In this document: in pieces, positions 23,141-24,129 of the stretch
Layout of the letters: each line of letters opens with the position of its first letter
Position numbering within the stretch: the stretch's first letter is position 1
NCBI RefSeq assembly: GCF_056712565.1
Contig: NZ_CM160072.1
DNA length: 64,000 bases
Direction: 5' to 3' (one strand)
Notes under the pieces: generated by a model
Database searches by the model: none
What the model was told of the DNA's origin: nothing
What the model saw: the letters and a program-made list of their open reading frames with translations, nothing else
Position numbers and translations under genes: made by a program

Positions 23141-23746
23141 ATGAGCAAAGAATTTTACGCAAGACTGGCAGCTATTCAGGAGAATCTGAACGCGCCAAAG
23201 AATCAGTACAACTCATTCGGCAAATATAAATACAGAAGCTGCGAAGATATTCTTGAAGGCGTTAAGCCGTTACTGAACGGTCTGTTTTTATCAATCAGCG
23301 ATGAAGTTGTGTTGATTGGTGATCGGTATTACGTGAAAGCCACGGCAACTATTACCGATGGCGAAAACAGTCATACGGCAACCGCTCTTGCACGAGAGGA
23401 AGAAAGCAAGAAAGGAATGGATTCTGCACAAGTTACGGGAGCTACAAGCTCTTATGCACGCAAGTATTGCCTCAATGGTTTGTTCGGCATTGATGATGCG
23501 AAAGATGCAGATACAGACGAGCATAAACATCAGCAGAACGCAGCAGCAAAGCAATCAAAACCATCACTTACACCTGAACAGGTTCTAAAAGCATTCACTG
23601 ACGCAGCAATGCAGAAAAACACCGTAGAAGAGCTTAAACAGGCGTTCGCCAAAGCGTGGAAGATGCTCGAAGGGACGCCGGAGCAGCACAAAGCGCAGGA
23701 CGTTTACAACATCAGACGAGACGAATTAGAAGGGGCAACTGCTTAA
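23141..23746 (+). CDS. erf: Erf single-strand annealing protein
   Basis: 201-aa ORF MSKEFYARLAAIQENLNAPKNQYNSFGKYKYRSCEDILEGVKP... matching recalled P22 Erf. Confidence 0.9.
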   Translation: MSKEFYARLAAIQENLNAPKNQYNSFGKYKYRSCEDILEGVKPLLNGLFLSISDEVVLIGDRYYVKATATITDGENSHTATALAREEESKKGMDSAQVTGATSSYARKYCLNGLFGIDDAKDADTDEHKHQQNAAAKQSKPSLTPEQVLKAFTDAAMQKNTVEELKQAFAKAWKMLEGTPEQHKAQDVYNIRRDELEGATA

Positions 23747-24129
23747 TGGCACATTCGATTACAGTAAGACTAAACAAACCCGCAAGAGAGTTTCAGGGCG
23801 GGGAAAATATCGGATTCAACATCCGTGCTGGCGTTCAGTATTACGATCGCCAGACAAAAAAGAAAGAATGGACAAACTACAGCGCCGTTGTATTTGCCAA
23901 GCCGGGAGCGCAAGCGGATTACTATCGTAGCGTTCTGGTTGAAGGAGGCATTGTAGAAATTACCGGAGAAAACATCAGGGTTGATGTTTATCAGGGGCAA
24001 AATGGTCAATCAATCACTCTTGAATTACTGAATGCAAAGATTGGATTTGCAACTTCAGGAAACAGCCAACAGCAGCAAAGTAGCAATCATCAAAATAATC
24101 CTGAATACGACGATTCCATCCCATTCTGA
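23746..24129 (+). CDS. ssb: Phage single-stranded DNA-binding protein
   Basis: 127-aa ORF, OB-fold-like N-terminus, Gln-rich linker and acidic C-terminal tip DDSIPF like E. coli SSB; TAATG overlap with erf. Confidence 0.65.
   Translation: MAHSITVRLNKPAREFQGGENIGFNIRAGVQYYDRQTKKKEWTNYSAVVFAKPGAQADYYRSVLVEGGIVEITGENIRVDVYQGQNGQSITLELLNAKIGFATSGNSQQQQSSNHQNNPEYDDSIPF

Follow-up and report, generated by a model that had tools for sequence, protein, structure and literature searches.

The closest described counterparts of the gene considered here are the gp40 proteins of phages HK022 and HK97. In a survey of lambdoid recombination modules (Genome Res 2025), HK97 gp40 was designated 'SSB-1b' and assigned by AlphaFold 3 a fold like that of bacterial SSBs, at no more than 15% identity (PMC12315714). 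Proteins of the SSB-1b type are, according to the same survey, without experimental study, and its main text leaves the acidic tip unmentioned (0 occurrences of 'acidic'). A second system of note is HkaK, the SSB of phage HK620 (DUF669, 'SSB-2', cognate of Sak4), which is reported to be non-homologous to bacterial SSB (PMC12315714), is encoded at the 'abc1' position, with the annealing protein ahead of it and abc2 behind it, and carries the host-like tip NDYPPF. These last six residues were needed for the binding of Sak4 to SSB-coated DNA and for the stimulation of annealing and of recombineering (PMC5928155). The C-terminal tails of SSBs are more generally taken to be determinants of how SSAPs function, and recombineering improves when the cognate phage SSB is co-expressed (PMC12054835). 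In phage P22, the map position between erf and abc2 is held by abc1, whose 94-aa product has a basic C-terminal part that, judged from its sequence, looks like a helix-turn-helix.

We analyzed a 64,000-nucleotide stretch of DNA (contig NZ_CM160072.1 of RefSeq assembly GCF_056712565.1; hereafter, the window), in which the stretch carrying the gene is 100% identical to a prophage found in E. coli ATCC 11775 and in several ExPEC strains. The features of the window on which the analysis bears are the following:

21312..21340, + strand: promoter-like site TTGACC-17-TAAATT in the early-left (pL) position after the repressor gene (consensus match only)
23141..23746, + strand: erf, encoding an ssDNA-annealing protein of 201 aa (PF04404 ERF, E 3.5e-44; PHROG_155)
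23730..23748, + strand: Shine-Dalgarno-like AAGGGG (23730-23735) and TAATG stop/start overlap (23744-23748), by direct reading
23746..24129 including the stop, + strand: ssb-like gene, 127 aa, of the HK022 gp40/HK97 gp40 type ('SSB-1b'), from the ORF, PHROG_44 and identity to the gp40 proteins
23746..24054, + strand: predicted OB-fold domain, residues 1-103 (strands 3-8, 14-18, 21-34 and 39-51; helix 55-63; strands 69-74, 76-84, 87-95 and 98-103)
24055..24105, + strand: disordered linker, short and rich in Q/S/N, residues 104-120 (pLDDT under 50 from residue 108 onward; unconserved in length and sequence)
24106..24126, + strand: acidic C-terminal tip YDDSIPF, residues 121-127 (direct reading and position logo)
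24153..24449, + strand: abc2, third gene of the recombination module, anti-RecBCD, 98 aa (PF11043, E 4.3e-62; 93% identical to P22 Abc2)

Direct translation of the ssb-like gene yields an intact ORF of 127 codons followed by TGA, the boundaries set for it by the initial annotation coinciding exactly with the ATG and the TGA. The product, MAHSITVRLNKPAREFQGGENIGFNIRAGVQYYDRQTKKKEWTNYSAVVFAKPGAQADYYRSVLVEGGIVEITGENIRVDVYQGQNGQSITLELLNAKIGFATSGNSQQQQSSNHQNNPEYDDSIPF, begins with MAHSITVRLNK and ends with NNPEYDDSIPF. Although the ORF listing also offers a longer frame from a GTG at 23656, the ATG at 23746 is taken as the conserved start because the homologues open with MAHSIT or MAHTIT. The protein shares 98.4% identity with HK022 gp40 and 94% with HK97 gp40, and both phages display the same erf-gene-abc2 order, the same overlaps and the same predicted SSB-like fold; it is essentially the same gene. 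RefSeq labels the 127-aa ORF 'hypothetical protein'.

The distance from ssb to abc2 is 24 nt. The stop codon of erf overlaps the ATG of ssb in a TAATG, and the AAGGGG motif sits 10 nt upstream of this ATG, such that erf and ssb are, from this layout, probably translationally coupled. A sequence scan returned no promoter-like and no convincing terminator-like site between erf, ssb and abc2. All three genes share their strand with a P22-C2-like repressor gene (20569-21219), and the replication genes (~17283-19603) lie beyond the latter on the opposite (-) strand. Between the N-like gene and erf lies a 156-aa ORF (22049-22519, + strand) matching PHROG_1636, a family of unknown function (E 1e-111), with no Pfam domain; HK97 gp45 is of identical size and occupies the same position, the comparison being one of size and position.

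On its far side, judging by the identical region of ATCC 11775, the prophage arm closes on a torI/Xis-like gene (26792-26992) that directly abuts dsdC (27180-28121, minus strand), dsdX and dsdA (the noted span reaching ~31016); no integrase gene was found on the torI side of the prophage and no tRNA gene anywhere in the window. The RefSeq annotation of the identical region marks three early-left accessory genes located 3' of abc2 as pseudogenes, namely DUF2737 (partial, ~24464-24547), Ea22-like (partial, ~25360-25671) and DUF4752 (frameshifted, ~25932-26217). These annotations suggest some decay of the prophage arm, with erf-ssb-abc2 still intact.

'SSB' is not a routine annotation for the 127-aa protein. 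It matched PHROG_44 ('single strand DNA binding protein') with an E value of 3.4e-29, and no Pfam family at E≤1, hence neither PF00436 nor DUF669; the precomputed Pfam field of nearly all of 120 homologues reads '-'. The initial annotation had called it a phage SSB and proposed alignment to E. coli SSB and OB-fold prediction as checks, of which the first had a divided outcome: a weak collinear similarity is there, whereas the protein falls below all curated thresholds of the canonical SSB family (PF00436 and TIGR00621, the latter scoring 19.1 bits against a cut-off of 53.95). In hhalign comparisons with E. coli SSB, the probability was 93.8% (E 1.7e-7) with the tails included and 3.7% (E 0.012) with an alignment of the OB domain only; a deeper OB-only alignment (Neff 4.8) gave 27% and E 6.5e-4, collinear over 85 columns. 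The full-length family profile searched against the PDB placed poly-Q artefacts on top (a huntingtin fusion, Mediator) and SSBs only at E 0.5, and it was because of this swamping that the OB-only alignments were rebuilt. A phmmer search of the PDB reached SSB 7d8j at E 0.036. Since the 93.8% fell to 3.7% once the tails were removed, we rate homology to E. coli SSB at the sequence level as weak and method-dependent, and rely on the fold.

The fold itself is predicted with confidence. An AF2 model of the 127-aa protein (single chain, 42-sequence alignment) had a mean pLDDT of 84.8, with residue blocks 1-100 at 85-96, and consisted of a beta barrel with helix 55-63 between strands 3 and 4, followed by a tail disordered from about residue 104. 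In the second of the proposed checks, the predicted model thus displays the elements of an SSB-type OB fold: a five-stranded barrel, the helix joining its third and fourth strands, and long hairpins. The best 21 Foldseek matches in the PDB were all SSBs (E 3e-5 to 4e-4, probability 1.00), with PriB coming next, and the named matches in a BFVD structure search were almost all phage SSBs. The scores were moderate (TM 0.4-0.55), which indicates that the OB fold is of the SSB type but diverged, and not a close structural match. A PriB-like identity was considered and set aside, since neither the conserved tip nor the setting among phage recombination genes agrees with it; PriB forms a dimer, is not known to carry a disordered acidic tail, and itself belongs to the clients of the PriA/SSB network.

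In all three hhalign registers, Y32, F50 and Y82 stand opposite E. coli W40, F60 and W88. The counterpart of E. coli W54 is W42 in one of these registers and Y45 in the other two, and H55 falls opposite T43 or N44 in two of the three. These putative stacking aromatics, placed by alignment, are conserved within the family. The likeness of the window protein to E. coli SSB lies in the predicted OB fold with its interstrand helix, in the disordered linker and the I-P-F acidic tip and, as far as the alignments place them, in aromatic residues opposite W40, F60 and W88; the differences lie in the linker, which in E. coli is ~56 aa long and rich in G/Q/P but here ~17 aa long and rich in Q/S/N, and in a Ser in place of Asp at position -4. 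Searched against 1.84 billion 50%-identity clusters, the OB-domain profile picked up just 213 representatives, and the family is therefore a small and separate one that does not run into the canonical SSBs at profile level. We consider it rather probable, in a judgement made jointly with the rest of the explanation preferred below, that the modelled protein belongs to the SSB fold class, though highly diverged.

The other claim made at the outset, that the C-terminus is an acidic tip resembling that of the host SSB, held up well. The E. coli SSB sequence, 100% identical to PDB entries 1EQQ and 4MZ9, ends in PPMDFDDDIPF. The last six residues of the window protein, DDSIPF, share five out of six with DDDIPF, and the two proteins also have in common an aromatic residue at -7 (Y vs F) and an acidic one at -8 (E vs D). 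The tip is more than a chance resemblance and is widely conserved in homologues: 78 out of 100 full-length representatives of 90%-identity clusters end in PF, and 73 conform to the pattern aromatic-acid-acid-x-[I/P]-P-F, while the linker preceding the tip is unconserved in sequence and varies from 16 to 76 aa (Q 28%, S 12%, and P, A and N 10% each, among homologues). The position logo of the 78 PF-ending homologues reads F/W/Y at -7, D at -6, D at -5, S/D at -4, I/P at -3, P at -2 and F at -1. A search of 50%-identity clusters gave a similar picture, with 66 of 118 representatives of at least 120 aa among the matches listed ending in acidic...P[FYW], another 7 of the same 118 having DIPF plus one residue and 7 being close variants. 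The tip YDDSIPF is kept in 79 of 80 IMG/VR copies and in HK022.

Some relatives go further and possess a full host-type tail, NEPPMDFD(S/D)DIPF; an Aeromonas phage relative ends in NEPPMDFDSDIPF and a Leminorella relative in PPMDFDDDIPF. Serratia prophages have variants such as WDDEPPF. In some members, the DDDIPF motif is followed by one to five extra residues (DIPFN, DIPFS, DDDIPFNQGGR; homologues P0102, P0111, P0112, P0127, P0146, P0159, P0195, P0221, P0222 and P0247), which puts the Phe off the C-terminus and should matter if the free carboxylate is recognized as in host SSB complexes. A minority of relatives, mainly marine, are without a tip. On two marine metagenome contigs (L088, 3001-5352, and L089, 2591-4835), Erf-linked relatives without a PF tip end in GGYNNNRG and PDDDWV, and the modules are of a different make-up, the SSB relative being followed by an unannotated gene of ~250-290 aa and an RdgC-family gene (PF04381).

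The reference copy of HK97 gp40 differs from the window protein by a frameshifted tip. An extra A (TCC-A-ATC) at ~2287-2300 of NC_002167 (minus strand; equivalent to window ~24115) turns DDSIPF into DDSNPILI. Either the sequencing was in error at this point or a mutation in the laboratory stock has taken the conserved tip from the family prototype. Because several Erf-linked marine relatives and the HK97 reference lack it, the tip is not indispensable for carriage beside Erf.

The gene is common. Among 5,426 complete E. coli genomes, 1,129 gave a match to a 1.5-kb erf-ssb-abc2 query (window 23000-24500), which was covered over 80% or more of its length in at least 555 of the genomes. The ORF is conserved at 96% identity or more in 80 IMG/VR prophage loci, in which Erf lies upstream with a 1-nt overlap in 76 cases and Abc2 downstream in 78. 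These 80 loci being near-identical E. coli prophage copies, diversity was drawn from homologue-encoding contigs and from phage GenBank records.

In this wider set, Erf is found directly upstream of relatives in Serratia, Chimaeribacter, Cronobacter and another enterobacterial prophage, on the two marine contigs and in Vibrio phage 209E38-1. RecT takes this place in a Vibrio phage, together with a YqaJ exonuclease, and in an Aeromonas phage, together with Gp157; a Sak4-like AAA_24 protein does so in Leminorella. A 28%-identical relative from a Vibrio phage has no adjacent annealing protein. The tie to Erf put forward in the initial annotation is thus supported by genomic linkage, the start of ssb overlapping or abutting the upstream gene in most of the loci examined. 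The same 1-nt overlap recurs in HK022 and HK97 and in the prophages of Serratia, Chimaeribacter and Cronobacter; in Leminorella it is shared with AAA_24 as the upstream gene, and in a Vibrio phage with the exonuclease. In the Leminorella grimontii prophage (L085, 2138-3417), the ssb relative starts 1 nt inside the end of the AAA_24 gene, a pair that mirrors the Sak4-SSB arrangement of HK620 with an SSB of an unrelated family. No Pfam-detectable Abc2 was present nearby in the Serratia, Chimaeribacter, Cronobacter, Vibrio, Aeromonas or Leminorella contexts. With Abc2 often absent outside E. coli and an annealing protein almost always upstream, the constant partner of the family is the annealing protein and not Abc2.

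We hold with moderate confidence that the ORF is the 'SSB-1b' of lambdoid recombination modules, expressed as part of the early-left operon and probably coupled to Erf; its main role is most likely that of the cognate SSB of the Erf recombination module. The ORF, its predicted fold, the conservation of its tip and its gene linkage are the observations on which the scheme is built, and it is from them that we infer ssDNA binding, an oligomeric state and partners for the tip. Single-stranded DNA at replication forks and at the ends of phage DNA, among them ends processed by Abc2-modified RecBCD, would be coated by the OB domain, and the predicted disordered tail would display the host-like tip E-Y-D-D-S-I-P-F. 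This tip may then serve as a dock allowing Erf to load onto, or to displace, the SSB on coated ssDNA before annealing. Docking of this kind has been demonstrated for Sak4 on the HK620 SSB, and has reportedly been proposed for Red-beta and RecT with the tails of the host SSB. Being nearly identical to the tip of the host, that of the phage protein would probably bind host SSB client proteins as well. By analogy, HkaK of HK620 is the best functional model for the window protein, even though the two belong to different families and HkaK is paired with Sak4 where the window protein is paired with Erf; one relative from the window family does follow a Sak4-like gene. Counting against an SSB partner for Erf is the fact that P22 Erf functions without a phage SSB.

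The resemblance of the tip to that of the host also lends itself to another explanation, of which the competition with host SSB raised in the initial annotation would be one form, and in which the protein is a decoy or hijacker of the host SSB interactome, the tip either titrating ExoI, RecJ, RecQ, RecO, PriA and the chi subunit of Pol III or recruiting them to phage DNA, and any help to Erf being secondary. The near-identity of the last six residues together with the aromatic and acidic residues at -7 and -8, the full host-type tails of some relatives, and the standing of the tip as the most conserved part of the protein outside the OB core all speak for it. A pure decoy, however, would need no OB core, and this core, including the putative ssDNA-stacking aromatics, is as strongly conserved as the tip; the constant, start-overlapping linkage is moreover to an annealing protein, and Serratia prophage variants such as WDDEPPF depart from DDDIPF, in which the SSB of the Serratia host also ends. 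We find it improbable that such a role prevails, but the two readings are compatible, a decoy function not being exclusive of service as the cognate SSB of Erf. A general replication SSB comparable to T7 gp2.5 or T4 gp32, placed in the early-left operon by happenstance, would also account for the SSB-like predicted fold. Phage SSBs commonly serve replication as well as recombination, and the Vibrio phage relative with no annealing protein beside it is what one would expect of such a protein. Against this stand the position of the gene in a recombination module, with the replication genes on the other strand across the repressor, and its occurrence directly after Erf, RecT or a Sak4-like gene in nearly all contexts examined. 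In addition, 177 of 246 phages with recognizable recombination-module genes carry no SSB, many of them with similar replication modules (PMC12315714). Altogether, we judge a purely replicative function to be quite unlikely.

The GenBank record of HK022 describes gp40 as a 'likely analog of P22 Abc1', that is, an accessory working with Abc2 on RecBCD, and the gene does occupy the exact position of abc1 between erf and abc2. Yet the two proteins have no sequence similarity (BLASTP against P22 Abc1 returned no alignment at E≤100), the predicted fold is SSB-like, and a like positional guess made for the 'Abc1' of HK620 was overturned by experiment in favor of an SSB (PMC5928155). That relatives follow Erf, RecT or Sak4-like genes, often in the absence of a Pfam-detectable Abc2, which is thus not their constant partner, further argues against the GenBank note. 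The note rests on position only, and this reading may be regarded as effectively excluded. The cognate SSB of the Erf module remains the role we prefer.

Comparison with P22 revealed a further aspect of the module. The window Erf is 75% identical to P22 Erf, with an N-terminal ~135 aa that is ~92% identical and a diverged C-terminal ~60 aa. At the DNA level, similarity to P22 extends over 23141-23617 (79%) and 24143-24476 (90%) with nothing in between, giving the look of a mosaic breakpoint inside erf. The block replaced relative to P22 consists of the last ~43 codons of erf and the entire ssb (abc1 in P22). The sequences hint that the C-terminal domain of Erf travels with the downstream gene, for which simple adjacency could be the explanation; when the C-terminal domains encoded by five erf genes, each linked either to an SSB or to Abc1, were aligned, no clear pattern went with the presence of an SSB. 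One may speculate, as an idea that we regard as doubtful, that the tip is a universal handle for Erf, RecT and Sak4-like proteins on a portable SSB, and that 'Erf C-terminal ~43 residues + ssb' forms a unit of exchange in E. coli and Salmonella phages. In support of the latter, the DNA ceases to resemble that of P22 at 23617, inside erf, and does so again only from 24143, immediately ahead of abc2. If true, the diverged C-terminal domain of Erf would be matched to the downstream product, SSB-1b here and Abc1 in P22, and a phage equipped with its own tip-bearing SSB could run Erf recombination without the host SSB and yet draw on the host SSB clients.

The first reading of this gene is thus supported. 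The gene is an ordinary one that has been described before, and its likely function and the concept of a tip-dependent SSB-recombinase partnership are all in the literature already; what is added here is the quantified conservation of the tip, the finding of three annealing-protein families as neighbors, and the case against the Abc1 note. A preprint also reports that phage SSBs trigger bacterial defence systems, Retron-Eco8 among them (bioRxiv 10.1101/2025.11.11.687766). Given that a very common gene is carried in RefSeq as a 'hypothetical protein' and belongs to no Pfam family, a correct name would improve the annotation of prophages. As a partner of Erf endowed with a host-like SSB tip, its product also offers a ready test case for annealing proteins acting via SSB tails, a mode of action that matters for making recombineering portable between species.
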